Assembly (NCBI RefSeq): GCF_022045235.1
Contig: NW_027266297.1
Span: 5,580,001 to 5,644,000, forward strand
Source: Haliotis cracherodii
Taxonomy: Eukaryota
Reading direction: 5' to 3'
Length of the DNA stretch: 64,000 nt
The notes under the pieces are model-generated. The model worked only from the letters and a program-made list of their open reading frames with translations. It made no database searches and had not been told where the DNA came from. Position numbers and translations under genes: made by a program. This document shows, in pieces, positions 29,284 to 53,000 of this stretch; position 1 is the stretch's first letter; every line of letters begins with the position of its first letter.

Positions 29284-30363
29284 TCATTTCTTGATCCAGA
29301 TCATATTATCTGGCCAGGCGGAATATTCTTCAACTTCGAGGAGGTCGTGAGCAGAGACGTCTGTGTAGGGCAGGAAGCCGTTCCTGGTGAGGAAGTTGGC
29401 GATCTCGCGCCCGTGAGGGGAGTGACGCTGAAACATCCACTCCATCATGATGTAACGGACGTCAAACGTTTGGAAGAACTGGGAGGCCCGACGAAACGCG
29501 TTCACCTCGTGACCTTCAATGTCCATCTTGATAAACACCTTCTTGAAGTCCACAACACGTACCAGATCATCCAACACTATCGAATCAACAATGGTGTCGT
29601 TGTCGTTACGTGTTGACTCAGATACGGGTTCGATCCTGGACCCGCCGACGTTGTACCGGTTGATGAGGACTTTGACAGGCGCCACGTGGTCGGAGACAGC
29701 GTTGAGAAGGAGCTGGACGTTGTTCCGGAGTCCGGCGTACGTGAGAGAGGAATGGAGCAAGAACAAGTTTGAACTGATTGGATCCACGGCAACAACCTTC
29801 CTCCCCATTAGAGCAGCGTACATCGTGTACATGCCGACATTACACCCGATATCAACTACGTGCATTCTGGGAATGGATGACAGAGCCGTTGCCATGGCAG
29901 CGAGAATATCCGGTTCCCAGGATCCAGTGTCCCGGATGTGAGATGAAATGAACTGATCTCGTTTGCTGTATACACAAAGACGAGTTCCATTCTTCATAGT
30001 CTTGAATGGAACACAACTTCTCCTGCCAACGAGTCTGTGTGGATTATATACATACAGTTTACCCTTCTTATTTCTCTTTCCTATCTTCTCAGCGTATTTT
30101 TTATCTTTCCCTTCTTTAAAGATGTGTTTGTTGAAATGCACACGGTTGATGTAGTCATCAAATGGTTCTGTGGGTTGGCGAAGTCGTGAGTCGTGGATGA
30201 AGTCCACGTAATCCTTTTCCTCCTTCAGGCGATGCTCCCAGTATCTCGCTCCCCCAGACCCTCCCCCAATAGATAAATATGTATACCACGCCAGCAGGAG
30301 CGCTAGTAGCGCCACGATCAGTATCGCCGCACAAGACGACTTCGTCATGGACCGCCGTATCAT
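29284..30363 (-). CDS. FkbM-family (Methyltransf_21) SAM-dependent methyltransferase, type II membrane, copy A, 359 aa, intronless CDS
   Basis: N-terminal TM helix AAILIVALLALLLAWYTYL; motif I VDIGCNVGMYT; VAVDP; NAVSD; KMDIEGHE; IMMEW. First ATG is at 30363, with an in-frame TGA upstream. 5'UTR acceptor gtttcag| at 30593. Confidence 0.92.
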   Translation of the reverse strand: MIRRSMTKSSCAAILIVALLALLLAWYTYLSIGGGSGGARYWEHRLKEEKDYVDFIHDSRLRQPTEPFDDYINRVHFNKHIFKEGKDKKYAEKIGKRNKKGKLYVYNPHRLVGRRSCVPFKTMKNGTRLCVYSKRDQFISSHIRDTGSWEPDILAAMATALSSIPRMHVVDIGCNVGMYTMYAALMGRKVVAVDPISSNLFLLHSSLTYAGLRNNVQLLLNAVSDHVAPVKVLINRYNVGGSRIEPVSESTRNDNDTIVDSIVLDDLVRVVDFKKVFIKMDIEGHEVNAFRRASQFFQTFDVRYIMMEWMFQRHSPHGREIANFLTRNGFLPYTDVSAHDLLEVEEYSAWPDNMIWIKK

Positions 30364-31039
30364 GATCTTCACCCTTGCCACAAACACAGGAACATGGAGT
30401 GGAGTTGGACAAGTATCACAGTGCCATTGATCACCCACTTCCTCGTCCAACAGTTCTCAGAACGGGCGATCCTTGATAAAGTAGCAATGTAAAGTCTGTA
30501 CCTTTGTTCGTGGTATTTTCCGTTCATTGTAGTTTTGACTTGGGAACGATGGTGTTCACACTGAATATATCCTTGTTTAGAACATCGTAGAAGCTGAAAC
30601 GTTTGAACAGATTGTTTAGACATGACGGAAAACTAGGGGGGGAATTAACTTGTGGAACAACAAGAAACATTTTACAAGTCGAATAATTAAGCCTAACACA
30701 TACAGTTTCTGTGTTTTGCTTTATGTGTTTGTTGCTTAACGCCGAACTCAGCAATATTGCGGCTACATGACGGCGGTCTGTAAATAATTGAGTCTGCACC
30801 AGTCAAGACAGTGATTGAAATCATGAACATCGATCCACGCAATTGAGATACGATGACATTCATCAACCAAGTCATCAACCCGATCAAGCATGGTTTGTTG
30901 AAGTCCAGTGTATTCTAGGATGCCTTATCAACGCTGAAGTACATGATCAATACGGGTCTCCTTTAATGTGTAGTCGGATATTAAATATACCTCCTCCCTG
31001 TAAAATTTTGATCGGTATAGAATCAGGGCGACAACATTT

Positions 31040-31760
31040 ATTTTGGGCCTATAGATGTTTTGTTTATTCAAACTGAATGAAGCGCCTTCAGAGTTACTTC
31101 CCTTTGCATAGCTGCGTGCTTCGCGTGCCTTGAGGAAATCTATCAACTAGCTGGGACGGAATTGATGTGTTTTATCGCTGTGTTTTCTTCTTAACCCTGA
31201 GTTTAATGAATGCTAGCTTTGTCTACTATATTCCGAGGCTTCTACCACAAAATTGCATTTGTTTTAATAGGCCTGGGGCAAAATATGGCCAGTGGATACA
31301 ACACTTCCGCATTGTGATAGGGAATCAGGCAGGGAGGCACATTTAGCCCCAGTAACTTCGATAAATGGACTATTATATACCCTGTAACAATAGTTTAAAG
31401 CATGATTATAATTTTTTTCCTCATTTCTTTCAACAGTGAAAAATCCGAAATACACGTGTCATAATGTAAACAACTGAATAAACATACTATTGCCGATAGC
31501 TGTTCAACTGCTATGTGTGCAATACTACACTGCTGATACAAATGAATGTAATCTCTGTTCCTACCTTTGGGGTTAATGTTGAAGCCCCACCTCCTGCTAG
31601 ACCCCCTCCTGATACCCAGGGACGGGGCTTGTCCCTCATCCTGTCTCCTGCATATGACAGTACATACGGTAGCCGAGTGACCTTGACATACGGCATTCAG
31701 TCAGATTACCGTCCACAGCCCAGGTGTGTCACCTGATAGCGACAGATAACACAGGTGGCT
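31040..31760 (-). promoter_or_regulatory. Duplicated 5' region of FkbM copy A (putative promoter, non-coding first exon and intron start), paralogous to about 39720-40430
   Basis: Colinear similarity between the two blocks, strongest around a candidate donor GGCTACC|gtatgt (about 31666 and 40343) and CAGGTGTGTCACCTG. Confidence 0.55.
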
Positions 31761-31966
31761 ATTGTGCAGTCCCTGGCTCTATACAACTGAGGTATTGTTA
31801 CTATTTACTGGAGTTTCTATAGGAAGGATGGGAATGAATGCTGACACTCCAAAATGTTCCCATCAATGAGGATGCCTGAATTGTTCAGGAGGTTCGAATC
31901 TGACACGACAGCCATATTCAAAACCCAATTGTGGCCATTATTCGTCCAGTTATTGTTTTATATGTA

Positions 31967-32143
31967 CAGTAAACTACGGTTCAATACAACGAACTCAAAG
32001 GGGCCACTAATTTTAGTTCGTAATATCCGTAGTTCGTTATAAGCATATATACAGCATATGTATATCTAACAGACGGGACCCAAAAGAGTTCGTTATATCC
32101 GCCAGTTCGCTGTAAGCGCGTTCGTTATAAACGTAGTTTACTG
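31967..32143. mobile_element. Tc1/mariner-pogo type MITE
   Basis: TA|CAGTAAACTACG ... CGTAGTTTACTG|TA. Confidence 0.8.
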
Positions 32144-32207
32144 TATTTAAATTTGATACGTGGGGAGTTTGTAGTTGGGGTTAATTTGTGTGTTCTTACT
32201 TTTGAGT

Positions 32208-32375
32208 GGGCGGTCGGGTAGCCTAGTGGTTAAAGCGTTCGCTCGTCACGCCGAAGACCCGGGTTCGATTCCCGACATGGGTACAATGTGTGAAGCCCAT
32301 TTCTGGTGTCCCCCGCCGTGATATTGCTGCAATATTGCTAAAAGCGGCGTAAAACCAAACTCACTCACTCACTCT
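32208..32375 (+). mobile_element. SINE family A copy
   Basis: Near-identical to the 44111 copy; TSD tcttacttt.gagt. Confidence 0.88.
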
Positions 32376-32694
32376 TACTTTAGAGTTATTGTAAATACTG
32401 ATCTTGATTTTACCTTTGTATTTTGATCATATTCTTTAACGTCTTCTTCTACCCTGAAGCTGCTTGTCTACTTCAAAAAATGGAATCTTTACTAAGGTCG
32501 TACATGTTATAACCCTGCTCAATAAGAGTCATTTCACGTTCTTTGAAATAGTCATAGAAAGGTCAGGCTTAATTGTACCCCAAAAGTTGTGAGATGTACA
32601 CACTAATGGCGGAAGCTGCTGGAACACTGTTCCACGCGAAGGGGAAGTCAGTGAAGTCGGTGATGTCTTAGCTCTTGGCATAAAATGGATGATA

Positions 32695-34178
32695 AACTGA
32701 CGTCCAAAAGAAACTTTACCAACTGAAAATATAAATTTCAGACAAAGTATAAAATTATTTTCGATGAAGTGTATCTAAAACACATAACCTAAATCAACAG
32801 TAATGTATGCAGAAAATGTTAATCGTCTGTTACGTGTTTGCGAGACAACACGCGAGTGAAAAACTCGTGCACCACGGACAACTGCAAATGCACGTGCGGG
32901 TAAGGGTATAAAACGATTGCAACGGCAAGTCAGACATCCACAGTGATAAAAAAAATACAAAAGAAGTGCCACGACTCACAGTCGAACAACGTGAACGAGC
33001 CTTGGGTATGGTACAGATGGGAGCCACCCACGCCCATATTGCACGAACCTTCGGTTGCTCCCGTGTTGCCGTTACCAACTTGATGCAACGTTACGAATAG
33101 GGCGGACCGCTGACAGGCTAAGAACAGGCAGGCCAAGGGTGACCACGCCCCATGATGACCGGTACTTGCGTACCTTGCACCTCCGAAATCGCTTCCTGAC
33201 AGTGACGTCATAGGCGACAAATGCCTTAGGTTACAGGGTTAGTCGACAGACAGTTGACAGGAGAATCAGCGCTTTTAGACCATACAGATGACAGCTATTG
33301 ACAGCGCAACATCGTCGTCCCCGATTGAGATGGGCCCGGACTGTACGACGTTGGCAACGACCTGACTGGCAGGGGTTGTCTTCACTGACGAAAGTCGATT
33401 CTGCATTCACGTGTTTACCGCCGAAGAGGTGAACGAACGGCGGCGGGTTGCGTGCAGGAGGTCGTACCATATAGTGGAGGGAGTGCCATGGTGTGGGGAG
33501 GGATCTGTGGGCAGGAGAGGACACCGCTGGTCATCGTTGACGGAAATTTGACAGCTCAGCGTTACATGGATAACATTCTTCGTCCAGCTCCAACAGCAGC
33601 CACGTGGTGTCATTTATCAGCATGACAACGCTAGAGCCCATACAGCCAGAATTGTCACTAACTTCCTCGCAGCCAACAACGTCAACGTCCTGCCGTGGCC
33701 TGCACGCTCACCCGACATGTCCCCCGTAGAACACCTCTGGGACTTGATGGATCGTCGTGTTCGACAACGACCACACTCTCCAGCCAACCGGCAAGAACTG
33801 ATCTTGGCCCTCCAAGAAGAATGGCGTCAAATCCCACGTCACCTCATCAGACGACTGACTTTTTCTGTGCGTCGAAGATTTTTGCGTGTGTTGAGGCATT
33901 TGGTGGTCACACACGCTACTAATGACTTGTTATTGAACGTGAGCGATTGTTTATGTACTCTGCCTATTGTCCATGATTCTGAAAGCTCGAGTTTTGTACC
34001 ACACCCAACTTTGGGGGGTTCTGACGTCATTCTCGGTCGCGGTATGATTGTCATTTTCAGTTTTGATTATGTTGATATATTGATCTTCTCAATACACTTT
34101 ACTTCATGCATGTATGTTTTGTTGTTTTTGAGCAAGAGTGATTTCAAACTCTGGTAAAAAAAATGTTGGACGTCAGTT
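32695..34178 (+). mobile_element. Tc1-family (DD34E) transposon with pseudogenised transposase (about 32966-33920)
   Basis: TA|AACTGACGTCCAA ... TTGGACGTCAGTT|TA; HTH PRLTVEQRERALGM..IARTFGCS; VFTDESRF; QHDNARAH; WPARSPDMSPVEHLWD; frameshifts. Confidence 0.9.
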
Positions 34179-35776
34179 TATATTGTCAGTCTTAATCTTA
34201 ATGCACAGATCTGATAGGAGACAGATTCCACTGGTCTCTTATACGTATAGTTCTGGTGGGTACATCAATGAAACAAAAGAAGCTATTTGATCAGATCACC
34301 ACAAAAATAAAGCCATCCAAGTCATTAATTAACAATATCACAAGTTGTATAATGATCAATAAAGATTCATTTTCTCAACACCTACAAAGAAGAACGCCAG
34401 TTTTTAAGCGCCAAGCGTACGTAATAACATATCTATGCTGAAAACCGTTGTTTAAATGTTTTAGCTCCTAAATACAAACATCAACTCGTTCCTTGTCCGA
34501 TAACTTTCCTTGTCCGAAAAAACATGTTTAGGATTGTGTTTAAACCTTAATATGTTAATCTGTTTGGAAGATATTATTATAATATGACGCAGTGAGAGAT
34601 CACTTCAAAACGGTATTAGCTTCAGACTTCAGCCTCGCACAACGACCAAGATTTTTTTTCTGACCTCTGCATGATCTAAGCGACCTTTTGATAAAACTTC
34701 TCCGAGGTTCCTCTTAAATGAAATACTGTTCAAATCGGCCTTAACCCCGACAAACGCTCACGTACACACAAGGCTAACCAACGTCATATACCCATTGATA
34801 CAACTGTAGATCTGCTGTAAACATTTCTCAGTATATTCCAACGTTTCCTTAAATGGATTACAGGAAATCACGAAGTCACGAAGTGATTTCATGTTTGTTT
34901 ATCTGTTGTTTAAAGCCGCATTCGGCAATATTTTAGCTATATGACGATGGTCTGTACACAATCGAGTCTAGATTGGGCAATCCAGTGGTTGACGTCATGA
35001 GCATCGATCTACGCAGATTGGATACGATGATATCCATAAGGTCTGTGAGTCTGCCCACCCGATCCCGTTAGTCGCCTCTACGACAAGCATGGGTTGCTGA
35101 AGACTAATACTTGGATCTCCTCCGGACGGGGAAATTGATATCAACAAGGTATTTATTTCTCTGAGCGTGTGCGTATTGGTGTGTGGGTCTGTGGTCTTAT
35201 GAAATATGAACAAGAGATCACAACTTATAACTGATAATTTTATTTCATTTTGTAAAAACCCAACATAGTATAGTTTTAATACAACGCTGAACACATAGAC
35301 ATGTATTTTCACATTATATTATTTATAGTAAATATTTAGGAAGCGATAACATGTGTATTTTGTGCATTTTTCCAAATATAAGAGTATAAAAATCATCATA
35401 TAAATGTATAATATATAGAGAAACATAAATATCTAAAATGCGTGTAACAACAAGATATAAAGGCGATAACACGAGGTCAAACTTATTATCGCTTAGACAT
35501 GTCAACTCTTTGTATTATTTCAAATATATAATAAATGATCCACACACAATCACCTTGTGTTTACGCAATACCAACACGTCTCGTGTATACGCAACTAAAT
35601 CATAAAAATAAGGAAAAATCTTAACAAGAAGATTTATTTATAATGAAGGGCCTTAAATGTTTTACGAAATAACACAATAACGCGCTCCTAATATACTGTC
35701 ATGGAGAAATATTTAAAAGTCTTTGTTGAAAGTCTACTTATATTTTAACATCACACACAGTTTAAATCGTGTTCAC

Positions 35777-36045
35777 GGGCGGCCCAGTCGTCTAATGCGC
35801 CGCAATTCGCTGTGCAGAGTTGCGCCCCTTGGACACGCCAGTAACAAATGAACGTTGGTTCGAATCCCGGTTCGCCCCGATTATGTTTCCAGGTTTGTCA
35901 GCACCATACCCGTGCTCGTGCGTGTCACCAAAGTGGTAAACTCTGAGACCTGCATAACTTCGGGCTTTCCTCCCACATTAAGCTGACACGCCGTGATATA
36001 ACTGGAATACTGTTGAAATCGGTGTTAAATAATACTCACTCTCTC
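35777..36045 (+). mobile_element. tRNA-derived SINE family D (V-SINE-like 3' half). Other copies or fragments: 1855-2085 -, 7520-7568 -, 8110-8290 -, 17562-17675 +, 25830-25975 -, 45815-45885 -, 61710-61880 -
   Basis: A box CAGTCGTCTAA.GCG, widely spaced B box GGTTCGAATCCC, 3' CTTTCCTCCCAC..AAGCTGACACGCCGTGATATAACTGGAATAC. Confidence 0.8.
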
Positions 36046-36262
36046 ACAGTTTAGATCACAATGTTTACACGGTTAACACCCATTGAGAACAGACCATTGC
36101 CATGGAAGTTAAAAAACCTGTTATTAAGGACACCGACGAATACTATAGAGATTACAACATTCGTACAGTTAACACCCAACATATCACTGAGAATACTCTG
36201 AATACTCTGACTATTAACGAATAATGCATACAAACCCACTGGCTGATCCTACTTTACAATAG

Positions 36263-37345
36263 TCATCTCTTGATCCAGATCATATTATCTGGCCAGGCGG
36301 AATATTCTTCAACCTCGAGGAGGTCGTGAGCAGAGACGTCTGTGTAGGGCAGGAAGCCGTTCCTGGTGAGGAAGTTGGCGATCTCGCGCCCGTGAGGGGA
36401 GTGACGCTGAAACATCCACTCCATCATGATGTAACGGACGTCAAACGTTTGGAAGAACTGGGAGGCCCGACGGAACGCGTTCACCTCGTGACCTTCAATG
36501 TCCATCTTGATAAACACCTTCTTGAAGTCCACAACACGTACCAGATCATCCAACACTATCGAATCAACAATGGTGTCGTTGTCGTTACGTGTTGACTCAG
36601 ATACGGGTTCGATCCTGGACCCGCCCACGTTGTCTTTATTGACGAGGACTTTGACAGGCTCCACGTGGTCGGAGACAGCGTTGAGAAGGAGTTGGACGTT
36701 GTTCCGGAGTCCGGCGTACGTGAGAGAGGAATGGAGCAAGAACAAGTTTGAACTGATTGGATCTACGGCAACAACCTTCCTCCCCATTAGAGCAGCGTAC
36801 ATCGTGTACATGCCGACATTACACCCGATATCAACTACGTGCATTCTGGGAACGGATGACAGAGCCATTGCCATGGCAGCGAGAAGATCCGGTTCCCAGG
36901 ATCCAGTGTCCCGGATGTGAGATGAAATGAACTGATCTCGGCGTCTGCTGTATACACAAAGACGAGTTCCATTCTTCATAGTCTTGAATGGAACACAGCT
37001 GCTCCTGCCAACGAGTCTGTGTGGATTATATACATACAGTTTACCCTTTTTGTTCCTCTTTGATATCTTCTCAGCGTAAATTTTATCCCTCCTTTTTATA
37101 AAGTTATGGTAATTGAAATGCACAGGGTTGATATAGTCTTCAAATGATTCCGTGGGATGATGAAGTCGTGAGTCCTGGATGTAGTCTACGTAATCATGTT
37201 CCTCCTTCAGACGATTCTCCCAGTATCTCGCTCCCCCAGACCCTCCCCCAATAGATGAATATGTGTACCACGCCAGCATGAACGCCAGTAGCGCCACGAT
37301 CAGTATCGCCGCACAAGACGACTTCGTCATGGACCGCCGTATCAT
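36263..37345 (-). CDS. FkbM-family methyltransferase, type II membrane, copy B, 360 aa (tandem paralogue of copy A)
   Basis: Same motifs and near-identical catalytic domain to 29284-30363. 5'UTR acceptor gtttcag| at 37630. Confidence 0.92.
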   Translation of the reverse strand: MIRRSMTKSSCAAILIVALLAFMLAWYTYSSIGGGSGGARYWENRLKEEHDYVDYIQDSRLHHPTESFEDYINPVHFNYHNFIKRRDKIYAEKISKRNKKGKLYVYNPHRLVGRSSCVPFKTMKNGTRLCVYSRRRDQFISSHIRDTGSWEPDLLAAMAMALSSVPRMHVVDIGCNVGMYTMYAALMGRKVVAVDPISSNLFLLHSSLTYAGLRNNVQLLLNAVSDHVEPVKVLVNKDNVGGSRIEPVSESTRNDNDTIVDSIVLDDLVRVVDFKKVFIKMDIEGHEVNAFRRASQFFQTFDVRYIMMEWMFQRHSPHGREIANFLTRNGFLPYTDVSAHDLLEVEEYSAWPDNMIWIKR

Positions 37346-38305
37346 GATCTTCACCCTTGCCACAAACACAGGAACATGGAGTGGAGTTGGACAAGTATCA
37401 CAGTGCCATTGATCACCCACTTCCTCGTCCAACAGTTCTCAGAACGGGCGATCCTTGATAACGGGAGGTGAAAGTTTGTGTCTTGCACTGTTCGTGAAAA
37501 CATCAGTTCTTTTATTCTTCAGTTGTATGTACATCATGTACGTCATTACAGTAGCTTATATTGTGGCCCTCTCCGGAATTGACAGTGTTTGTTATCACAG
37601 GGAATGTCCTTGTTTAGATCAGTATAGAAGCTGAAACATAAAGAATATATTGTATTTTTATTACCCTCCCCTAGAGCCTGTTATACGTTTTCGTGGCCCT
37701 CCGCTAATTCCCTCTGACCCACCCACCCCTATAATAAATGTCCGGTCAGTTTTACCTCATGGGTCTATCTTCGTTATAAAAGATTCTGCAAATCATGTGC
37801 GTGTCATGAAGAAACATGAGATTGTCGGATACAGAGCTCGGTATCCCGCGTCCCAAAAGTGCACTCTCATGTGGTATTCCGGATACCCCCTCAACCCACC
37901 CTAAAAACAGTTTCAGTTTCTAATGTCTTAATAATGACGACACAAATTATTCCGTCTCTCATAAAAATCCCAGATACGGAAGGTCTTGCCGCGTTACGGG
38001 ATTTTACGAGATGAACTTATCTGTGTACACCCCTTGTACTGGTATTCGGTTTTAAATAGCCCCGCTCGTGAGACATATATAACGAATTTATCATTACGAG
38101 TTCACATAGATATTTTCGGTGAAATATTTAATGTGTCACAGCTCGATCTCTCATTTGACCGCTCTCAGTACTACGATAACTCCCAGTGCCCACAGGGTCA
38201 GTTGTGACGTAACAAGCCAATGACGTTACATCATACATTATGACGTCATGCAATCCGTCTAGGGGTATCCGGTAGCTAGATTATTTAACGAGTGTTGATA
38301 ATGTG

Positions 38306-38735
38306 TTTTATAGCTAAAATGGATAGAACTATCATTAAACTGCCCGCATGTTATCAGAAATCGGCGGGCCACTGTAACTTGATAATGCCCTCATATTGCT
38401 TGACGAAGGGCCATTATCACGCCCGTTGTTAGGTGACGTCATAGGGTAGGGGTAGTGACGTCATATGGTTTGCTCTATGACGTTTCCATATTTATAAAAG
38501 TGGGTCAGTGACATTCGTGTCGATTGCAGTAAATGTTTCAAAACCGACATTGTTGTTTCTATTTATATGATAACAAATTTAATCCACTTTAGCTATAATA
38601 GCGGTAACGCTCTTTTTCAGGGCATTATCATTTGCAGAAGCCCTCGGTCTTTTCAACTGCCCTCCTTCGTCAGGCAGTTAATGGAAGACCTCGGCCTTCT
38701 GCAAATGATAATGCCCTGAAAAATAGCGTTACCCT
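38306..38735. mobile_element. Fold-back element(s) in the FkbM-B 5' intron, absent from the paralogous copy A region
   Basis: ttatagctaaaatggat / atccacttttagctataa, and a long hairpin at 38603-38733. Confidence 0.55.
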
Positions 38736-39719
38736 TATAGTAACAGGGAAAATATGGGGCGGTTTTATTGTCCCGATTTTTTGGCCGACAGTCATTGTAT
38801 CAAAGTCGCACACGGGAGGCACAAACGTCGCCATCCTTTGTAAAGGCCCTATTAACTCTATCCACTTGACCACGGAGGCGGTCTGTTCCAAGAGGCGGTG
38901 ATGAGATGGCCAGAGGTTGACGTCACAAGTTTCCCTGATAATATGACATATGCCTGATTGACCAATTTCTGCTGAATGTTAGAGGTGTAACTTCTGTATT
39001 TAGTAAACTAACGAAAGGTAGATATGAATTTTAAGTACCAAATGTAATACATTCGAGCGGCTATATGTACCAGCGTGTGCAGTGTACGTACATTACCAGA
39101 ACTGGATGAAAAATACGTGTAGATGTAATATTTAAAGCGCTATTGACCAAGGACACAGTTAAATATAGTCCCTCGCAGTCACCCGACTATCGATTCCAAT
39201 CCGGATATTAGCCACCTGATCAATTCTCAATGATGATGTTTCTCCCTAAGAAAATGGACATTTCTTGAAAAGCGCACTTTACAATTTTTCTCATTACTGT
39301 TTGTAATATTCCTTATCGCAGGAATTTCTTGTTTTAACTTTATAAGTATTAGCCCACATGTTTCTATCTTCGTTAATTAATCATCGCCATATTTCGTGAT
39401 TCTGGTGGCGAAGACTACAGAACATATTCATCTATACATGGTGCATGTATTCAATCACTCAGACTATACCCTGACAAATGGGAACATCCAATATGGCGGT
39501 CAAGGTTTCGCGCATAACGAACGACGGAGGTAATGAACAAATGTCAGCACAACACCGTTGTTTACTAAACTATGTTTCCGTGTTTTCAAAGCATGTCCAC
39601 TTTATTCACTTTCTAATACGGTACTCGAGTATCTCAACAATACCGATCCCACTTTATATAGTCTAGTCGGATATAAAATACTGCCACCTGCAAACTTTTG
39701 AGAGCAAAAGAATCCGACA

Positions 39720-40430
39720 ACATTATTTTAGGCCTCGAGTCGTTTTGTGAAACTAATTGAAGCGCCTTCAGAGTTGCTTCCCTTTGTACAGCCGCTGGCT
39801 TTGTCTGCCTACGGCAAAATTGTAAACTGGAAGGAAATTGATCGGTTTTAACGTAATCTACTTCTTAATCCAGAGTTACCTGAATGCTGGCTTTGTCTAC
39901 AATATACCCGGGCTTTATACTGTAATACGTCACCTGTGTTTATCGGCCTGGGGCGCAATATCATTGTTAATGGTCGCAACACATTTTACTTCCGCATTGT
40001 ATGATGGAATCAGGCAGGGAGACACATTTAGCCCCGATACGTTCGATACACGGACTTTTATCCAACATGTATCGATCATTTGAAGCATGGTTATATATAG
40101 TTTACATATGTCTTACCATAATGCAATATCTGAAATACACATGCATTATTATAATGCAGCAGCTGCAAGATTGTAACGTGTGCAACACTCTACTGCGGAT
40201 ACAAATGAATGCAAATCTATCATGATCTCTGTACATACCTTGGCGGTTGACGTGGAGGCCCCACCCCCTGCTAGACCCCCTCCTGATCCCCTGGGACGAA
40301 GCTTGTCCCCCCATTGTGTCTCCTGCATATAACAGTACATACGGTAGCCGAGTGACCTTGACATACGGCATTCAGTCCGATTAGCGTCCCTAGCCCAGGT
40401 GTGTCACCTGATAGCGACAGCTCACACAGA
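39720..40430 (-). promoter_or_regulatory. Duplicated 5' region of FkbM copy B
   Basis: Paralogous to 31040-31760. Confidence 0.55.
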
Positions 40431-40738
40431 TAGTTATTATGCAGCTGGCTGTGTGCTATTTAAAACTCATATATTGTTTTAAGAACTGTTGACATTTGCT
40501 CTGCTTTATTCACGTTGAAAGATAATTTCTGAAACACATCAATTAAAAATAACGTAATTAAAATGAAGACGAGGGCCGGGAGGGGGTGGGGGTATATTTA
40601 TTGTTTTAGGGGACTGGATGAAACTGATAATCTTTCTGGTCTAGTAAAGCGTCCGGAGAGAGGAAAGTTGGGTATTCATGTTAAACTGCAACATGGTATC
40701 TCAGTGGGCTAGCAATATAAAATCGGCATTAGTCGGGA

Positions 40739-40867
40739 NNNNNNNNNNNNNNNNNNNNNNNNNNNNNNNNNNNNNNNNNNNNNNNNNNNNNNNNNNNNNN
40801 NNNNNNNNNNNNNNNNNNNNNNNNNNNNNNNNNNNNNNNNNNNNNNNNNNNNNNNNNNNNNNNNNNN
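40739..40867. other. Assembly gap (inside a SINE B copy)
   Basis: Run of N. Confidence 1.
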
Positions 40868-41851
40868 GCAATAATCCTGGACGCGACGTTAAACCCGATT
40901 TCACCTCACCTCACCTCACCTCTTGAGAATGGTTATTCAGTCATAAACTCGGAATATCAATATTAATATCTTGTTGAATTTAGCTTTCATTGTTTTCCTT
41001 CTTGTCGAGTTTTTTATGATAAATAAGTAAGATTGGTAAATAAGAACTGTGAAACCTCGTTAGACCAGACTCCGCTAATCCTGAAACCCGTGTACCGGAG
41101 ATTACTGCTAGGAACACTCGCACGTCTATAAGTTGAATTAATCCGTACCCATAATTCGTTAATCCGGTTGTTCATCCGTAAGATTTCAATTGCACTGCTA
41201 CCGTCCGGGTTAACAAGGTTTCGTTATCCAACAAAAGAGTAACATTTTTATCATGTGAAAATTATTACCAGTTTTGGTTATTCGGCTATTTATAAAAGGG
41301 TGCATTAAATACGAAGAATGCACAATGTTATTAGAGACCCGGCTATTCAAACCTATCCCAAATGTATGTTTTCCCCCTCTCTGGTGCATTCCGAATGCAT
41401 TAAAACCTATTTTTGGAGCTCATTTCAAATTACAAGTTTGTCGTTAAATTTAGTTGTTTTGCTTGTATAAAGGTAATGTGAGATGTCATTATTTTATAAT
41501 AAATTGGAGACCGCTGCAGTCTAGCAGCTTATATGAACAACGGATGCTAAAATATTGCAATAAAGCATGTCCCTTTGCCATCATTGATTTCAAGGACGAT
41601 ATTCTTAAGTAGCGGTGTCATCTGTCAGAGAGTCTCGGCTTTTGTATTGACTCTATTCATCCCCGCCATCTGTGGCTTTTCCAGTTACTTTTATTGACAC
41701 AAGACATTCACTAGCTCGTGACACACAGCAATATTTCAACATTAATGGACTGTGGTGCACGAGTCGTTCGTAAAGTCAAAGGATATTTTTTTCTCTGGAT
41801 ATTTAGCGAGATCGTACTTATCATATTACCAGATGGAGCGATCAGTTAACC

Positions 41852-43630
41852 ATGGAGAAGTTTAAAGATGTGTCTTATAAACGGCTAGAAGAAGGAAAAG
41901 ACAAAGACAACACCGATATGCGTTGCTTGAAAAGGGTGGTGGTGATACTGGTGATAGCGTGTGTAGCGTTGCTGTGTTTCGTCGCGTATTCGGTTGGAAT
42001 AAAGAGTTCCCCGGACGTGGAACAGACAGAACAGTCTGGCCAGAACGTTGGGGCAGTTGGAGTGGTACAACAAGCGGGAGACAGCATAGAAAAGGATGAT
42101 CAACAGAAGGAAGGGCTACAGAAGGATGTACAACAGAAGGAAGGGCTACCGAAGGATGTACAACAGAAGGAAGGGCTACAGAAGGATGTACAACAGAACG
42201 ATGGGCTACAGAAGGATGTCGAGGAACCCGGAGAGCTACACGAACCCCAACTCGTTCCTTCATATTCAAACGGGTCAAATGAATGGCATGAGCATGATTC
42301 CTCGCGGAAAAATACCAATGCCCAAACTGCCACTCCTAACAATTCTCAGAATCTGACAGCTGCTAACGCTCAGGCCGATCAGAATAAGACACGGGAACAG
42401 TTTATTAAAGAAATTAGAGAAGATTTACTCAAACTTAAACATCAAATGAAGGCTAAGGGCAAACATGCGGAAGTAACCTCACAGAAACCGAAACCTACAC
42501 GTCCTTCTACGACAAGTTATCACATGCCTAAGAATGTTTCATTGCCAGCAGATCCGCATCCAGAGATAACTAAACAACAACTCCACGCTCGACTCAACAT
42601 GGTCTTGTCTGACATCAGGAACGACATTGGCGATAGAAGGTCTTTGCAGGCGACACTGCAGTTCCTTCAGCGAGCTATCCAGGTGATCGAGCAGAAGGAG
42701 CTTGCTGCGGATCTTGCGGCGGAGGGACAGACCCTTCCCACACTACCCCCAGGCTGGAAGGAATTTACGACCCCCACTCTCAAGAACCCCCGTGTTAAAG
42801 ACATGATGAAGACACTGGGGACCACACCGCATAAGCTCGACAAGTATGACCTTGCCAAACCATACGAATGGGACTTCCGGTGTGTGTTCCTCAAGGTGCC
42901 AATGAAGCATGAGCCAATGATTTGCATCAATGATCCCGAGTTTGATAAACCGATGTCCAGCTCCCTGGCCGAAACTGGACAATATGAAGCTAAAATGGTT
43001 GGGTTCTTCCTTGAGATTCTTCACTCGGATATTACGTTACAAGCAGTAGACTTAGGAGCCAACATTGGGTTGTATAGTTTAGCAGCGGCCGCCATCGCCA
43101 GACCCGTGTTGGCAGTAGAACCAAACGTACAAAATATTCGCCCTTTCCACAAATCAGTCAAAATGAACGGGTTCCAAAGGCTGGTGACGCTCGTCACAAA
43201 CTGTCTGTCCGACCGATACAAACTCGTGCAGCTAGTCTACAACAAGATGGGTAACCTTGGTGATACGAAAACTGTCGAGGTTGTGGAATCGATGCTGAAG
43301 AATGATATCGTTTCTGCTGAGGATGTCGTGCGGACCGTCGAACTGGATGACCTTATTCCGGCCATGACCTTCAAGAGAGCAATTGTCAAGGTCGATGTCC
43401 AAGGAGACGAAGTCCGGATGTTCCGTGGTGCGCAGATGTTCTTCAAAAATATTCACGTGCGTTACGTACTAATGCATTGGTTTTACATGGACGATCCAGT
43501 TGGATATAACTATATTTACGGATTTCTGAAAGACAGAAACTATTTGCCTAACTACTCCCCACACGGGAGGGTTATCAGTGAGGAGGCCATGAAGGAAGAC
43601 CAATCAATCGTTGTATGGATCAAATTCTGA
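41852..43630 (+). CDS. FkbM-family methyltransferase, type II membrane with long stem, copy C, 592 aa
   Basis: Short basic/acidic tail, TM VVVILVIACVALLCFVAYSVGI, 10-aa repeats QKDVQQKEGL, C-terminal VDLGANIGLYS / VEPN / KVDVQGDE. AATAAA about 45 nt after the stop. Confidence 0.92.
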   Translation: MEKFKDVSYKRLEEGKDKDNTDMRCLKRVVVILVIACVALLCFVAYSVGIKSSPDVEQTEQSGQNVGAVGVVQQAGDSIEKDDQQKEGLQKDVQQKEGLPKDVQQKEGLQKDVQQNDGLQKDVEEPGELHEPQLVPSYSNGSNEWHEHDSSRKNTNAQTATPNNSQNLTAANAQADQNKTREQFIKEIREDLLKLKHQMKAKGKHAEVTSQKPKPTRPSTTSYHMPKNVSLPADPHPEITKQQLHARLNMVLSDIRNDIGDRRSLQATLQFLQRAIQVIEQKELAADLAAEGQTLPTLPPGWKEFTTPTLKNPRVKDMMKTLGTTPHKLDKYDLAKPYEWDFRCVFLKVPMKHEPMICINDPEFDKPMSSSLAETGQYEAKMVGFFLEILHSDITLQAVDLGANIGLYSLAAAAIARPVLAVEPNVQNIRPFHKSVKMNGFQRLVTLVTNCLSDRYKLVQLVYNKMGNLGDTKTVEVVESMLKNDIVSAEDVVRTVELDDLIPAMTFKRAIVKVDVQGDEVRMFRGAQMFFKNIHVRYVLMHWFYMDDPVGYNYIYGFLKDRNYLPNYSPHGRVISEEAMKEDQSIVVWIKF

Positions 43631-44110
43631 CCAGCCCTCTCGTTCAATGGATGTGTCACTGTGTGAAATGTTGAATAAATGTGTTCCTGTTGCAAGAATT
43701 CATCAATTCATGGCATGAAGGATCCCAAGCTAGAGGGATGTTGACAGACAGTTCACGGAATGGTGTATTTTGCAGACAATTCGTCACCACTCGGCCTTTT
43801 CAGTAACTGCATGGAACATCGATCAATGTTATTATTGTTATGATTGTGCGAAAAAACGGCTATCTAATGTCATTTAGCGTATCGATAAAAGTCCTTTGGA
43901 CAATTACCCACTCCTTAATATTTTGTGTTTATAAAAGCAGGTTGTATCTTTAGAGCAAAGTGACAGTCACAAGCGTTTCACCACTTTACATACTAGAATG
44001 GATACATAAATGGAAACTGTGTTCTATTTATAGAAAACTCACGTAACTTATGTATAGGTACATGTGGCACAACAATTTGACTATGGTTTTCGCTATGTTC
44101 GTTTGCGCGA

Positions 44111-44278
44111 GGGGCGGTCGGGTAGCCCAGTGGTTAAAGCGTTCGCTCGTCACGCCGAAGACCCGGGTTCGATTCCCGACATGGGTAAAATGTGTGAAGC
44201 CCATTTCTGGTGTCCCCCGCCGTGATATTGCTGGAATATTGCTAAAAGCGGCGTAAAACCATACTCACTCACTCACTC
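44111..44278 (+). mobile_element. tRNA-derived SINE family A, full copy. Other copies: 1602-1770 +, 32208-32375 +, about 44377-44535 -, and a split copy at 51694-52390 +
   Basis: A box TAGCCCAGTGG, B box GGTTCGATTCC, (TCAC)n tail, TSD of about 11 bp (cgtttgcgcSa). Confidence 0.88.
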
Positions 44279-47230
44279 GTTTGCGCCAAGACAGAACCAA
44301 CTTGACAAAATGGCCGCGAGAGGATATCGAGTCACCATTCGGCATTAACTAAACTGAAATAACTTTGGAATAAGTGCGTGAGTGAGTATGTTTTTTTTGC
44401 CGCTTTTAGCGATATTCAATGTCACGGAGGGACACAAGACATTGTATTCGCATGCTTGTACTCCTGGAAGGAATCATACCGAGGAAATCGGCTAGGTGAG
44501 CGAACGCTGACCACAAGGCCAGCCCACCACCGCTTGTAGAATAGGACGACAATGAGTCAAAAGTTTCTTAGACTTAAGCTAATCCTCACCAAAACAATTC
44601 CACCTTTAGTGATTATCGGGGTTAGGTCTGTCAAGACAAGGTGAAGTGAGGTTAAATGGGGTTCAATATTGCGTCCAAGATTACTGCACTTATAAAGCGA
44701 CGTGTGTGCACATGTGTGTGTGGCCGCTTGAACTTATCCGGACTGATGCCGATTTATAGTGCTAGCCCACTGACATACCATGCCGCTGTTTAACATGAAT
44801 ACCCCACTCAGACACAGTATACTGATTGTGTAGCCCCTTTCCTTGTAGCCCCTTTATGAGAACGCCAAGCAGGGTAACAACAAGTACCACCTTTTAACCT
44901 CTTTTGGTATGACGCGTCAAGACAAGGATGTTTTTCTCATCCTCCTCTTATCCTTCACTTGATCTGACAATGATTTTCTCCCATTATTGCAAAAACCATA
45001 TCATTTGCAAACTAGATTCCCGTATTGGGGGAGGAGGTGCTCTGTATGTTCTTCTTGTTGTTAAAAGGATTATTTAACTACGAAAGTGTAATGGTGTCAC
45101 TTTAGTAGCATTTATAAGTTTGGTTTTTTTAATCGAAATTTTGAGTATTTATCTTGTTACTTCAATTATTTTCAAACAACAAAATTCCTGGGTGGGGGGG
45201 TATCAGAACTTCGATTATTTTCTCGTCACTTCTATTACTTTCGAATTCGAAATTTCGAAAAATGAACCGAATTAAGAACATTAATCGAACTAAATAATTT
45301 TTCTAAATAACTACAGCTGAAATTACTAGAATGTAATGAATTGACGAGAAAATAATTGAAATTACAGTGACAATCGAAATTTCGATGGAATATTTTTTTT
45401 AAATATTCGAAATAACGAGAAATGAAGTATGTTGCTATCAATTAGTGTTTCCATTGGGCTTTCATACATAATGGTGTTCTATAGTGTGTGCTCCTTTCAG
45501 AGTACTCGCCGTGAAACTGTGATAGATTCTTCGCTGAGACGAAAGTGGGCAGGACAACACAGCCTCATCTGTTCATCCATCATTATCAGCTGTTTTATAG
45601 TAGTATATATCCATATATCCTGATTTACTTCTCTCTTTATATGTATACTAGTACTTTAGTATACTTTATACACCATCTATCGACCATTGTGTTATGTCTG
45701 CGAAAACTGTCATACAATTGTAATATTTATTCTTATAAATTGTTTAATGAGAGTATTTGTAAAGACTCCTGATCTAAAGTAAGACAAAAGAATGTTAAAA
45801 TTTTGGTGAGGACGCATCGAGGATTCGAACCCTTCATCATAGGATCATAGAATCGTGACACGTCCAAGGGACGCAACTCTGGGCCATCGTCCGAACAAAT
45901 ATCGCGGTATATTCGTACATTATCAAGTATCTCATGGGATAGTCCAAGCCATCCGTTCATGGTACAGCATGAATAAATATTATAATACATCTCGTGACGA
46001 TGACGTAATGAGGTTTGTTTACAGCAGTTTGTGTAATTCTTTGTAAAAACCATTCGCTTATCACACAGGAACATTGGTCAGTAAATACAATATGTACCTC
46101 CTATATGGAAGTACTTACATATTTTATTAACTGACCAATAACGCGTTTCCGTGGCTTATCATCTCACTCGCTTACTGTATTACGTACCCGTGGAGATCCG
46201 GGTTATAAAAGGTCTTCATCAACCCATGCTTACCGAAAAAAGGCGACTGTGCTTGTCATAAATGGCGACTGACGGGATCGAGTGGTCAGGTTCGCTGACT
46301 GTGTTGATATTGATATTGCTGTCTGTGGCGTTAAACAACAAACGAACAAAACTGAATTACTAAACCTGAAGTCAGTGCTTTATTGTCAACCTTCTGTTAA
46401 CACCATGGATCACGGAACCAAGGACAGCATCCACCGCTTTCAAGGGTATGCTGTAGTATTTTAAGAAGAAATGTAGGAATATTTCTTGTATATTGATTCA
46501 AAGACAATATTAGATTTAAACACACACAAAATCCTCTTTCTTTTCCGTATACGGAAGCTCTTGCATACATTGCCAGGAAACTTTCGCTACGAATTGATGC
46601 AACATCGCCATCACATACTGCCTGGCCAGAGAAAGTAGGCACCCATGTTTGATGGTGGCTAAACAAGAAGCAAAGGAGAAATGGTTATTCGATGGTGATG
46701 TATTATTTCATTAATAATAATCATGATCATCATCATCATCTCATCAATGAGTATCTCACAACTGGTGACGTGCACATGGCGTCTCAAGGAACATGGGGTC
46801 GCAATTTCACAGTACACGGTGTTGAGCAGAGTGAAACAGGTATTGTCAAATGTATGCTATATTTTGCCCGGCAGTCACGTTGTACGGCCCGCCTATATAA
46901 CCAGAGAAGGATATAATGTTCGATATTTTGTCGATTTCCTTTTATATCTCCATAGTATTCGCTCAAGTCGGGTTATGTTACCAAAATATTATCCTTGACT
47001 TATGCTGCAAGTGTTTGAATAGCAAATGAGAAATTGTCAGCATCAGTCGATGCCATCCTGCCGCAGCTGTGAGTGACTCGCTTCAGCCTAAACAGCTGTG
47101 TGGAGATATAATTCTTTTCTCTTCTATAATAATGTCATTCCAGAATAATTGACCCGTATGTATGCCGACGTGACACGGACGTTGACAATTGACTTGCGAT
47201 GCATTATCCGTATTTCTTCACATGAAAGGT

Positions 47231-50094: not shown

Positions 50095-53000
50095 CTGAAA
50101 ACAGTTTTAAAATCTGTTACTATGGAGACATATCTACACAAGCATTTAATTGCAATGGGTAAAAGGTAAGCGACACCGTACCCATGGAAAACTGACATGT
50201 TTAATTCTCCCCCACGCCAAAAAAGTGTGCACACAGCACTGACCACTTCCGTGGTCTAGTAGTAGAGCGTCTGACCGCAGAGCGGAAGGTCGGTAGTTTG
50301 ATAACTGCCTGCGTCATACCAAAAGACGTTAACAGATGGTACTTCTTGTTACCCTGCCTGACGCTCGGCATTCAGGGATGTGACAAGGACTGGTTGGCTT
50401 GGTATCTCGATCAGTGGGCTAGCACTATAAAATCGGCGGTAGTCAGTTCTAGTACAAGCAGCCCCACACATAAACACACACATGCACATGCGTCGCTACA
50501 TAAGTACAATAATATTCATAAACCAATTTCAGCTCATATCACACACGCCCTGTCCACACACCATTGCCATGTTGCCCAAACGATCCACAAAACCACCTCG
50601 CCTTCTACGACAAGCAATGACAACGGAAGCCATCGTCCCAAGGTAGAACCTACATGGGGAAAGAACAATGAACGATATTACTACATAGATCACTGTTAAA
50701 TAAAATAAATAATAATGCCCTGAACACCTTCGGACGGAGCGACCGTGACCCACGACGGTAACGTTACCCTTACAACTAGCAACAACCAGGCGTTGTAATC
50801 GTCAAACCTCAGTCGTTCTCTGCTGAAGTTATTGTACCAGCATGCTGTACAATGCATAGTCTGAGCTTTGAGGATTAGCCGTCACTGGGGTCAGTTCGGT
50901 TGCCAGGGTAACGTCACCACAATAACGCGACTCACTCTCGGTCGCAGCTGTCCACATGCATGATCATCTTCGTGTTGAGGTTGACGTGCAACTCCAGACT
51001 CGAACTCTCACGTCCAAGACGGCGTCTGAAACAAAGGAAGTTTCCGATATAACCCTGACCTTCACCACAGAGAAAACATGTTGTATTAAACTGCCGGACA
51101 AAAGAAACTAAACACTACAAAAAATAACAAGAAAATAACAAACGTTATCAAAACCTTACAACATTGCCAAAAAAAGAGTCACTGAGAACTGGAACAACAT
51201 CGCTATCATATACTGATAGTGATAAGAAAGTACACGCTTAAAAAATCGATTTGATAAACAAATTACAAACTTTATCAAAACGTTACTAGGCTGAAAACAC
51301 TGGAAATTTAAAGGTCCAAAATATAGTTATCATACACGTATCAAATACATCACCATCGAAAAAAACATTTCTTGTTTGTTTCATTTGAAGCCAACATCAA
51401 ACATGGGTGTAGACTTTTTTTTGTCCGGCAGTTTCGTAGGGCTTCAGTACGCGTTTTTTTTACACGTTTTAGACACGTTTTTTTTCATAACTTAAACGAC
51501 TAGATTTTGGGGCTGCTGTTGGTATGAAGTGAGATCCTGTCCCCTTTCGTTTGGTTTGATCATAAACATCTTCAGATAAAACACGCATAGCGATTGTTCC
51601 GTTTCGGGTATTAACACACACATAAACACACTTTCTCTGTATATGTTTTATTCATATTTTTTTTAAAATCGCTTCATCAGCTCCAAATCGTTTGGTGCGG
51701 TGGTGTAGGCTAACCGTTTAAGCGTTCTCTCGTCAGTCTTGTTTGTCTGTTGTTCAGCAATAGCCAAACTTTATGACGGCGGTCTGTAAATAATTCAGCC
51801 TGGACCAGAAATAATTCAGCCTGGACCAGGCAATCCAGTGATTGCCATCATGAGCATCGATCTTCGCAACTGGGATACGATTACATGTATTAAACAAGTA
51901 AGGGAGCCTGACCACCCGATCCTGTTAGTCGCCTCTTACTCATTTTGTGAGAATATATGGTATTGCCCTAACCACAACGTTAAACGTTTGTTCGTTCGAT
52001 TGTTGTTTAACGCCGCACTCAGCAATATTCCAGCTATGTGACAGCGGTCTGTAAATAATCGAGTCTGGACCAGACAATTCAGTGATTGGCATCATGAGCA
52101 TCGATCCGAGCAATTGGGATACGATGACATGCATCAACCAATTCAGGGAGCCTGACCTCCCGATCCCGTTAGACGCCTCTTACGACAAGCAAAGTCGTCA
52201 TTTACGACAAGCATGGGTTACTGAAGGCCTATTCTACCCCGGATTTATTCACGGATCGTTAAAACAAAGCACCAGGTTCGAATCCCTTTATGGGTAAAAT
52301 GTACGAAGTCCATAAAAAACCGTTTATGGTGTCCCCCGCCATGATAGTGCGGGGATATAAACGGTTACACTCACTCACTCACTCACTCTCATCATGGCCT
52401 GTTCTGTCATAACCGTATCAACATATTTCTGACTGGCATTTTTAACGCGAGGCATGGACATTATCAACTTCTACGGCAGGATAGCAGTAAGTCCTCACTC
52501 CATCTCCTCATCCTCGAAGTGTCTGTACCAGTGTCTGAAGGCTTCTCGCGCCTCCAACTCTGTGACGGTTCCATCTCCGTTCTTGTCCAGCGTCCGGAAC
52601 AGCGCCTTGGCCACCAGCAGCTCCTTCTCCGTCAGCAACTCCACCAACTCCCTCTGTAAACCAGTTTTGATCCACCATAAATTTGAAATAACTCGATTCT
52701 GATTGGTGAATCAAAGGTTACATATTTCATGAAGCAGCTGTTTTGACGACCGCATAGCCACGGAAGCTAATATCTATAGAAAGGTACATCTTTCTCGGCT
52801 ACTGACGGATTACATTTTTAAATAATGATATGCACAATTATAGGTTCCACTTAGGACATGTGTAAAAAACAATGACCTAAAATAGTACGATACCGTAAGC
52901 GGCGTTTGAGTATTAGGCAGCAACTGGGATGAATGCTCGATGACTACTTTTAAACAGAGATCTGTCCCCTTAGAAAACCTCAAATTTGGCTAAGCTCTTA

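Follow-up and report, generated by a model that had tools for sequence, protein, structure and literature searches.

The cluster of three FkbM-domain genes found in a 64-kb stretch of Haliotis cracherodii DNA (hereafter, the window) raises the question of whether these genes encode the enzymes that O-methylate glycans in gastropods. Two premises of the preliminary description, which had proposed such a role, agree with the literature. First, gastropod glycoproteins carry methylated hexoses, as hemocyanin glycans of Haliotis tuberculata are described as containing methylhexose (PMC7690630, PMC8699351); in oysters, Fuc, Hex and HexNAc are methylated at several positions (PMC10301044). For squid and Volvarina, glycan methylation is reported to be low. 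Second, the animal enzymes were said not to be identified: the glycan methyltransferases of C. elegans were stated in 2019 and 2023 as still to be identified (PMC7614267, PMC6422873), and a search of the open literature brought up no report that names an animal glycan methyltransferase. In our best reading, the three genes probably encode FkbM-type glycan O-methyltransferases of the secretory pathway.

Gene 1 (29284..30363, minus strand) encodes, in an uninterrupted ORF, a 359 amino acid protein with a basic tail (residues 1-10), a hydrophobic anchor (approximately residues 11-32), a stem and an FkbM catalytic domain (residues 117-359). Gene 2 (36263..37345, minus strand) encodes a 360 amino acid protein with the same layout, and gene 3 (41852..43630, plus strand), which lies head to head with gene 2, encodes a 592 amino acid protein with a charged tail of 28 residues, an anchor (approximately residues 29-50), a long stem with short repeats and a divergent FkbM domain (residues 344-592). 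For genes 1, 2 and 3, respectively, PF05050 scored 41.3, 42.4 and 27.5 bits (curated cut-off 22.7) and TIGR01444 scored 63.4, 66.6 and 62.2 bits (curated cut-off 37.7). Kyte-Doolittle analysis (19-residue windows above 1.6) revealed one peak per protein, with window starts at residues 5-17, 5-15 and 21-35, each preceded by a basic tail and followed by 2, 2 and 6 N-glycosylation sequons, respectively. With the ORFs in place and both HMMs above cut-off, the described architecture holds: in each of the three genes, an uninterrupted coding sequence specifies a short basic tail, a single hydrophobic segment, a stem and the FkbM domain. The term intronless, also used for these genes, applies to the coding part of all three but not to gene 2 as a whole, which has a 5'-UTR intron. 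Judged by hydropathy, all three proteins have the layout of Golgi type II glycan-modifying enzymes (a single N-terminal segment, a tail, a stem and a C-terminal domain), for which a size criterion of 300-600 amino acids has been used (PMC7614267); "luminal" and "Golgi", as applied here, are predictions from this topology.

The idea of a dedicated glycan-methylation locus is not supported. No fourth copy was detected within the window by tblastn, and the N stretches at 7570-7706 and 40739-40867 are too small to conceal one; no glycosylation gene was found next to the cluster among the 148 window frames scanned. The cluster is one of several small ones in a family that counts at least 28 relatives, spread over 10 contigs of the abalone genome; in 26 of them a single open frame holds the domain, and the three-gene window is an ordinary sample of this family. 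A hydrophobic anchor is present in 24 of the 25 open-frame abalone copies scored, and a hydrophobic window of at least 1.6 within the first 80 residues in 122 of 135 full-length family matches (29 of 164 rows were dropped as short, lacking a starting methionine or lacking the motif). Members with a named source come from gastropods, bivalves, annelids and a nemertean. Among these, which are the best-scoring matches only, none is from a nematode, although nematodes methylate glycans. Databases already tag such proteins as "Methyltransferase FkbM domain-containing". No glycosyltransferase fusion was found among 34 multi-domain matches scanned or among three longer matches, which consist of FkbM repeats or FkbM only and are weak evidence of the absence of fused forms. 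A Pinctada model combines P450 and FkbM, and may be a gene-prediction join. Several family members also match PF05575 (RfbT), one single-domain protein scoring above its cut-off.

The predicted structure of the gene 1 domain (residues 117-359; pLDDT 93.7) shows seven core strands and a class I methyltransferase fold, with the FkbM protein 2py6 as the top Foldseek match; a PDB sequence search returned generic SAM-motif matches only. RNA, catechol and cobalamin methyltransferases are level at Z 12-14 in the structure comparison, and thus the fold does not discriminate substrate. Conservation across the family is pronounced: D171, G173 and G177 are present in 183 of 183 rows, K279 and E286 in 181, D281 in 180, E308 in 177, S140 in 172, D136 in 170 and E283 in 166 (Q in 13). 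In the model, D281 directly follows strand 4 and E308 closes strand 5, which we take to be the acidic metal-ligand positions of COMT and MycF. COMT-type structures do rank high, level with RNA enzymes, and the family profile gave no alignment with a TylF-family protein (probability 0.5), leaving the metal-site reading without sequence support.

Among characterized proteins, the family profile could be aligned by hhalign with NoeI over 173 columns (probability 94.7, E 6e-8). NoeI is the Nod-factor fucose 2-O-methyltransferase of Sinorhizobium fredii NGR234 (PMC4881576), is itself a PF05050/TIGR01444 protein like the abalone proteins, and shares with them the D-x-G-x-N-x-G, E/D-P, A-x-S-D, LDD and D-x-E/Q-G-x-E motifs and the strand-5 Glu. 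It differs in being soluble, bacterial and anchorless, is approximately 19% identical and lacks the D-S-WE N-terminal motif. Since NoeI reaches 11.9 bits compared with about 45-87 for uncharacterized FkbM proteins (seven other FkbM proteins compared), NoeI is, judging by these alignments, a homologue across the catalytic domain and not the nearest bacterial relative or an orthologue. The nearest sequence and structure neighbors outside animals are bacterial, phage and giant-virus FkbM proteins (PF05050, RfbT-like PF05575; 2py6), which frequently adjoin or are fused to glycan genes and are themselves uncharacterized; those inspected have no type II anchor layout, unlike the abalone proteins. 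Glycosyltransferase or capsule genes lie within 7 kb of five of the six plasmid matches inspected (of 30), the exception, H7, having no glycan genes nearby. It should be noted that this context comprises six plasmid regions and one phage region without a control, and that rhizobial plasmids are rich in glycan genes. A single-query search for relatives of one FkbM protein in prokaryote genomes found none.

The proteins could instead be active secretory-pathway methyltransferases with non-glycan acceptors: lipids, pigments, small molecules of a phenolic or polyketide-like type, or proteins that are luminal or secreted. The namesake FkbM methylates a macrolide hydroxyl, and the best structural matches include RNA and catechol-type O-methyltransferases. 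In addition, METTL9 has been reported as a secreted protein methyltransferase (bioRxiv 10.64898/2025.12.23.696137), and a clam FkbM-domain transcript is described as responsive to Vibrio (PMC9125321). We nevertheless consider this alternative unlikely, given that the layout and single coding exon fit Golgi glycan-modifying enzymes, that the bacterial relatives lie mostly in a glycan gene context, and that the family expansion suits the range of methylated sugars that molluscs carry.

The assumption that FkbM-family enzymes are O-methyltransferases stands for the few characterized members, but the PANTHER family to which Drosophila Star belongs (PTHR34009) falls under PF05050 as well, a comparison made by the shared Pfam domain alone. 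Star is a type II membrane protein of the secretory pathway, a trafficking factor that escorts the EGF ligand Spitz, and we know of no methyl transfer by it. The abalone proteins might likewise have kept the methyltransferase fold without catalysis and serve in the lumen as chaperones or cargo adaptors: PF05050 occurs in the Star PANTHER family, which is expanded in an annelid (PMC12403961), some abalone copies (L025, L027) are degenerate, and gene 3 carries Gln and His at positions 283 and 308. However, near-invariant SAM-binding and acidic residues are expected of an enzyme, and ordinary FkbM methyltransferases are the closest structural neighbors, making a Star-like role quite improbable.

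Glycan methylation in the Golgi lumen would call on luminal SAM. Plant Golgi polysaccharide methyltransferases with GoSAMT, and C. elegans SAMT-1, resemble the logic proposed for abalone, with luminal glycan methylation and an MFS_5 SAM importer; the plant methyltransferases belong to other families (DUF579, QUA2/CGR types). To our knowledge, humans do not methylate glycans. The MFS_5 family, linked to Golgi SAM supply, is present in humans too (bioRxiv 2021.07.06.451061), and the transporter is therefore only a prerequisite. Two MFS_5 loci were identified in the abalone genome, one encoding 458 amino acids in a single frame and one in several exons, suggesting that a luminal supply is available, with SAM as the putative MFS_5 substrate. 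This bears on another alternative, in which the proteins act extracellularly, for example on mucus or on glycans of microbes or algae, and their hydrophobic segment serves as a surface anchor or is cleaved off as a signal peptide. Hydropathy does not separate a signal peptide from a signal anchor here, and the tails of genes 1 and 2 have only about 10 residues, but the 28-residue tail of gene 3 is long for a signal peptide. SAM is scarce outside cells, whereas the Golgi importer family is present, and we regard extracellular action as very improbable.

The intronless coding sequences had also raised the question of a retroposed or bacterial origin. The 5'-UTR intron of gene 2 (37631..40238, minus strand; 2608 bases, donor GTATGT, acceptor TTTCAG) is supported by contigs of runs X1 and X7, from two studies, which end at 37630-37632 and whose loose end exactly matches 40241-40264, within a non-coding 5' exon (40239..40444, minus strand; upstream end approximate); none of the read sets behind the contigs of X1, X2 and X7 is catalogued as RNA. 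Gene 1, which is 91% identical to gene 2, has by homology to gene 2 only a predicted 5'-UTR intron (30594..31564, minus strand; GT..AG) and a predicted non-coding 5' exon (31565..31769, minus strand; upstream end approximate). The donor and acceptor are conserved in the alignment of both genes, whose 5' exons fall inside an 847-base block with 74% identity; no splice junction was seen in the contigs for gene 1 or gene 3. As this homology extends into the intron and upstream (5' exon and promoter) and is not confined to the mRNA, genes 1 and 2 are, on the alignment, a DNA-level tandem duplication. A dN/dS of 0.39-0.44 (gene 2 vs. gene 1 approximately 0.44) suggests, from small counts, purifying selection on the pair, and both genes probably catalyze the same reaction.

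Recent bacterial transfer, contamination or functionless recent retrocopies, which the single coding exon and the nearest language-model clusters (bacterial FkbM proteins, score 0.97) might suggest, are hardly credible and we reject them, given the spliced 5'-UTR intron of gene 2, the duplicated promoter and 5' exon, an intron-bearing abalone paralogue (L028), the spread of relatives over four animal groups, orthologues with 81-83% identity in other Haliotis and 39-41% in named bivalves vs. 24-35% for the best plasmid and phage matches, and animal monophyly that is not rejected in rough trees (p-AU 0.76). An ancient transfer or ancient retroposition may lie at the base of the single-exon subfamily. 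In rough trees, grouping all abalone copies is marginally rejected (p-AU 0.045).

Gene 3, which is covered by two contigs of run X2 and shares a 90% cluster with a Haliotis rufescens protein, is 32% identical to genes 1 and 2 over 250 amino acids. Its FkbM domain has Gln for Glu283 and His for Glu308, and Trp350 is absent; gene 3 may differ in reaction, or be weakened. Paralogues specialized for other sugars, as proposed for the cluster, are plausible only for gene 3 against genes 1 and 2. One rough tree places gene 3 with annelid and nemertean proteins, and its grouping with genes 1 and 2 is not rejected (p-AU 0.53), so we claim no order of origin. The mycobacterial proteins Rv2954c, Rv2955c and Rv2956, which we take to be linked to the FkbM family, offer a precedent for clustered paralogues with one sugar position each. 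They are described as methylating the fucose of PGL at positions 3, 4 and 2, respectively (PMC3594219), and differ in being cytosolic and bacterial; that article does not use the name FkbM. In animals, the starfish sialate 8-O-methyltransferase is a SAM-using glycan O-methyltransferase activity (cited in PMC6994554), known as an enzyme activity.

Thus, the reading of the three genes as glycan O-methyltransferases draws on the conserved SAM-binding and acidic residues, the NoeI alignment, the bacterial glycan context, the methylhexose of Haliotis and the MFS_5 genes, which provide independent but circumstantial support. We propose that these FkbM proteins, with one N-terminal anchor and a predicted type II topology, likely act in the Golgi lumen and transfer methyl groups from SAM to hydroxyls of terminal Man, Gal, Fuc or GalNAc on glycoproteins, mucins or glycolipids. 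Held by the basic tail and anchor, the domain would face the lumen, SAM would enter via an MFS_5 (SAMT-1/GoSAMT-type) transporter and would be bound at D171-x-G-x-N-x-G and D/E194. By analogy with COMT and TylF-type enzymes, and with about even chances of being correct, D281 and E308 would bind either a divalent metal or the diol of the sugar, with E283 or E286 as the base. The family-wide D136/S140/W149/E150, N238-x-G and W350 may line the acceptor site, and the many paralogues would share out sugars, positions or tissues.

For the family as a whole, we lean slightly toward the view that anchored lophotrochozoan FkbM proteins are the missing animal glycan O-methyltransferases, a bacterial-type enzyme recruited to the Golgi whose more than 20 paralogues would mark mollusc N- and O-glycans with a methyl code specific for position, to be read by tectonin-type lectins. 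Further secretory methyltransferase-like families are present in the same abalone genome and could be the true glycan enzymes. The value of the finding lies in this functional proposal and not in the three-gene cluster: with a defined family of single-exon genes for well-folding proteins, whose active-site residues are predicted, the enzyme question becomes directly testable. Methylated sugars characterize the glycans of molluscs and nematodes, influence lectin-based defence and have been discussed for oyster virus binding, and, if the proposal is true, the family would provide tools for site-specific glycan methylation.

The three open reading frames named in the preliminary description were re-found at the same coordinates: gene 1 at 29284-30363 (minus strand, 359 aa), gene 2 at 36263-37345 (minus strand, 360 aa) and gene 3 at 41852-43630 (plus strand, 592 aa). 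All three exceed the curated HMM cut-offs of PF05050 (Methyltransf_21) and TIGR01444 (fkbM_fam), and they represent a real, ancient, multigene family within the FkbM family. Circumstantial evidence points to a Golgi glycan O-methyltransferase as the most likely, and in our judgment probable, identity of this family. Each protein has a single hydrophobic stretch near its N-terminus, preceded by a basic tail, with sequons located C-terminal to it. Genes 1 and 2 share 91% identity, gene 3 shares 32% with them over the domain, and the dN/dS between genes 1 and 2 is ~0.44 overall (0.39 within the domain alone), from counts of 22.5 synonymous against 35.5 non-synonymous differences.

A Tc1/mariner-type DDE transposase fragment (33552-34154, plus strand, PF13358 match) lies between genes 1 and 2, and a second one, recognised by eye only, lies at ~16900-17130 (minus strand). 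High-copy short repeats resembling tRNA-like SINEs occur at ~32200-32400, 35800-36000 and 44100-44280, where contig depth is very high; ARAGORN found no tRNA in them. Long minisatellite arrays (13584-14946, 15143-16848, 17676-18676, 57686-58551 and 59097-59996) give rise to spurious long open frames. Exons resembling PHF24/KIAA1045 span 52498-60650 (minus strand) and probably belong to one gene; they include an exon near 60255-60650 whose start, MGSGAS, may be N-myristoylated, a KIAA1045 RING finger scoring over cut-off (55590-55865) and EF hands (53133-53450 and 52498-52710), all on the minus strand.

A search of the abalone genome gave at least 28 family matches on 10 contigs, several of them in small tandem groups as in the window, and the three-gene cluster itself is unremarkable. 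The domain lies in one open frame (333-607 codons) in 26 of the 28; of the other two, L026 is split by a frameshift and L028 has introns. A hydrophobic peak of at least 1.8 falls within the first 35 residues in 24/25 open-frame copies scored. L025 and L027 are degenerate members, whereas L047, a gene with several exons, belongs to a different methyltransferase-like family. Among proteins with a named source, those of Haliotis asinina and H. rubra come closest (81-83%), followed by those of bivalves (39-41%), and gene 3 falls in one 90% cluster with an H. rufescens protein. A profile search returned 983 representatives at E <= 1e-30, and an N-terminal hydrophobic window was present in 122 of 135 full-length matches (29/164 rows left out). 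Organisms were looked up for 30 of the best 150 matches, and the 15 named comprise gastropods, bivalves, annelids (Paralvinella, Owenia), a nemertean (Lineus) and one ichthyosporean; this sample is skewed to the closest matches and therefore does not delimit the family's range. Four proteins from Mytilus and unnamed sources (P0020, P0021, P0218 and P0219) carry at least three tandem FkbM domains each, preceded in P0020 by one anchor, an arrangement that would suit sequential methylation. The 1699-aa protein P0036 of Chromosphaera perkinsii has a multi-pass membrane region followed by four FkbM domains of related type. The membrane region weakly resembles CRT/SLC35F transporters, which is no more than a lead (atlas score 0.86-0.87), and the protein may represent a transporter-methyltransferase fusion or a gene-model join.

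The family profile aligned over 173 columns (probability 94.7) with NoeI, an FkbM protein by domain assignment that methylates Nod-factor fucose (PMC4881576), although NoeI is more distant from the family than FkbM proteins lacking characterisation. Glycosyltransferase or capsule genes lay within 7 kb of 5/6 inspected plasmid matches (of 30; a raw count) and 4 kb from the match in one phage region. Methylhexose is present on H. tuberculata hemocyanin (PMC7690630, PMC8699351), and in oysters fucose, hexose and HexNAc are methylated at several positions (PMC10301044), a variety that requires more than one enzyme; bacteria offer a precedent for clustered sugar methyltransferases that are each specific to one position (PMC3594219). 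The abalone genome also has two loci of the MFS_5 family, to which C. elegans SAMT-1 and plant GoSAMT belong (bioRxiv 2021.07.06.451061): L048 (G000:C11) and L049-L052 (G000:C56), one single-exon and one multi-exon.

The AlphaFold2 model is a confident class I methyltransferase fold (pLDDT 93.7), with the FkbM structure 2py6 on top in the PDB and giant-virus and phage FkbM proteins on top in BFVD (Foldseek, TM up to 0.82). In VIA-align, catechol-type O-methyltransferases score level with RNA methyltransferases (Z 12-14), so a substrate cannot be read off the fold. The leading alternative, that the acceptors are not glycans, is unlikely. No glycosylation gene was found near genes 1-3 among 148/206 non-repetitive window frames scanned, and no glycosyltransferase fusion was seen among multi-domain and longer family matches; the presence of other secretory methyltransferase-like genes in the abalone genome also counts against the glycan reading. 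So does the fact that PF05050 covers Drosophila Star (PMC12403961), yet a Star-like non-enzyme is improbable: the SAM motif (D171-x-G-x-N/H-x-G) and an acidic residue at 194 are invariant across the 183 rows of the family alignment, and K279, D281, E283, E286, E308, D136, S140, E150, N238 and W350 are near-invariant. In the model, D281 lies just after strand 4 and E308 at the end of strand 5, the positions at which COMT and TylF-type enzymes hold metal. By this analogy D281 and E308 might, at about even odds, form a metal site; we keep this as an inference because the profile comparison with a TylF protein failed to match, its residue pattern being similar by eye. Because gene 3 has Gln at 283 and His at 308 and lacks Trp350, its chemistry may differ from that of its relatives; NoeI also has Gln at the 283 position. 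Action outside the cell we regard as quite improbable.

Genes 1, 2 and 3 are covered partly or almost entirely by contigs of runs guessed to be RNA, and expression is shown for gene 2 only. Contigs of runs X1 and X7, which come from two studies, break at 37630-37632 and continue with letters matching 40241-40264 exactly, with no other match within the window. The stretch missing from them, 37631-40238, is bounded by a GT donor and a TTTCAG acceptor. Gene 2 is therefore spliced, with a non-coding first exon; as 2-4% of contig letters differ from the window, the spliced gene may instead be the gene 2 orthologue of a closely related species. All three CDSs are intronless, as described, but gene 2 as a whole is not. 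The donor, acceptor and first exon of gene 1 are homologous to those of gene 2, in a block of 847 bases at 74% identity; because this block takes in intron sequence, the pair arose by DNA duplication. The splicing and this duplication lead us to reject contamination as well as any recent retroposition or transfer from bacteria, so the retroposed or bacterial origin that was raised as a question is not borne out as a recent event, and recent transfer or dead copies are highly improbable. Since L028 has introns, the single-exon subfamily may have begun with an ancient retroposition or a loss of introns. Animal monophyly was not rejected (p-AU 0.76) in a thinly sampled tree that included 15 sequences either unplaced or from outside the animals.

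DUF672 presumably later became PF05050. It is listed among secreted C. elegans families (PMC3534327), and the methyltransferases of this nematode were stated to be unknown in 2019 (PMC6422873) and again in 2023 (PMC7614267). The latter source already names "potential methyltransferases" in its set of clustered genes for candidate Golgi proteins with a single anchor. Full-text searches, with most subscription literature out of reach, found no paper tying FkbM-domain proteins to animal glycan methylation and, with the gene-list figures of PMC7614267 also out of reach, none naming an animal glycan methyltransferase; an earlier mention of this family may exist. Reading the abalone family as probable glycan methyltransferases makes the question of the animal enzymes testable.
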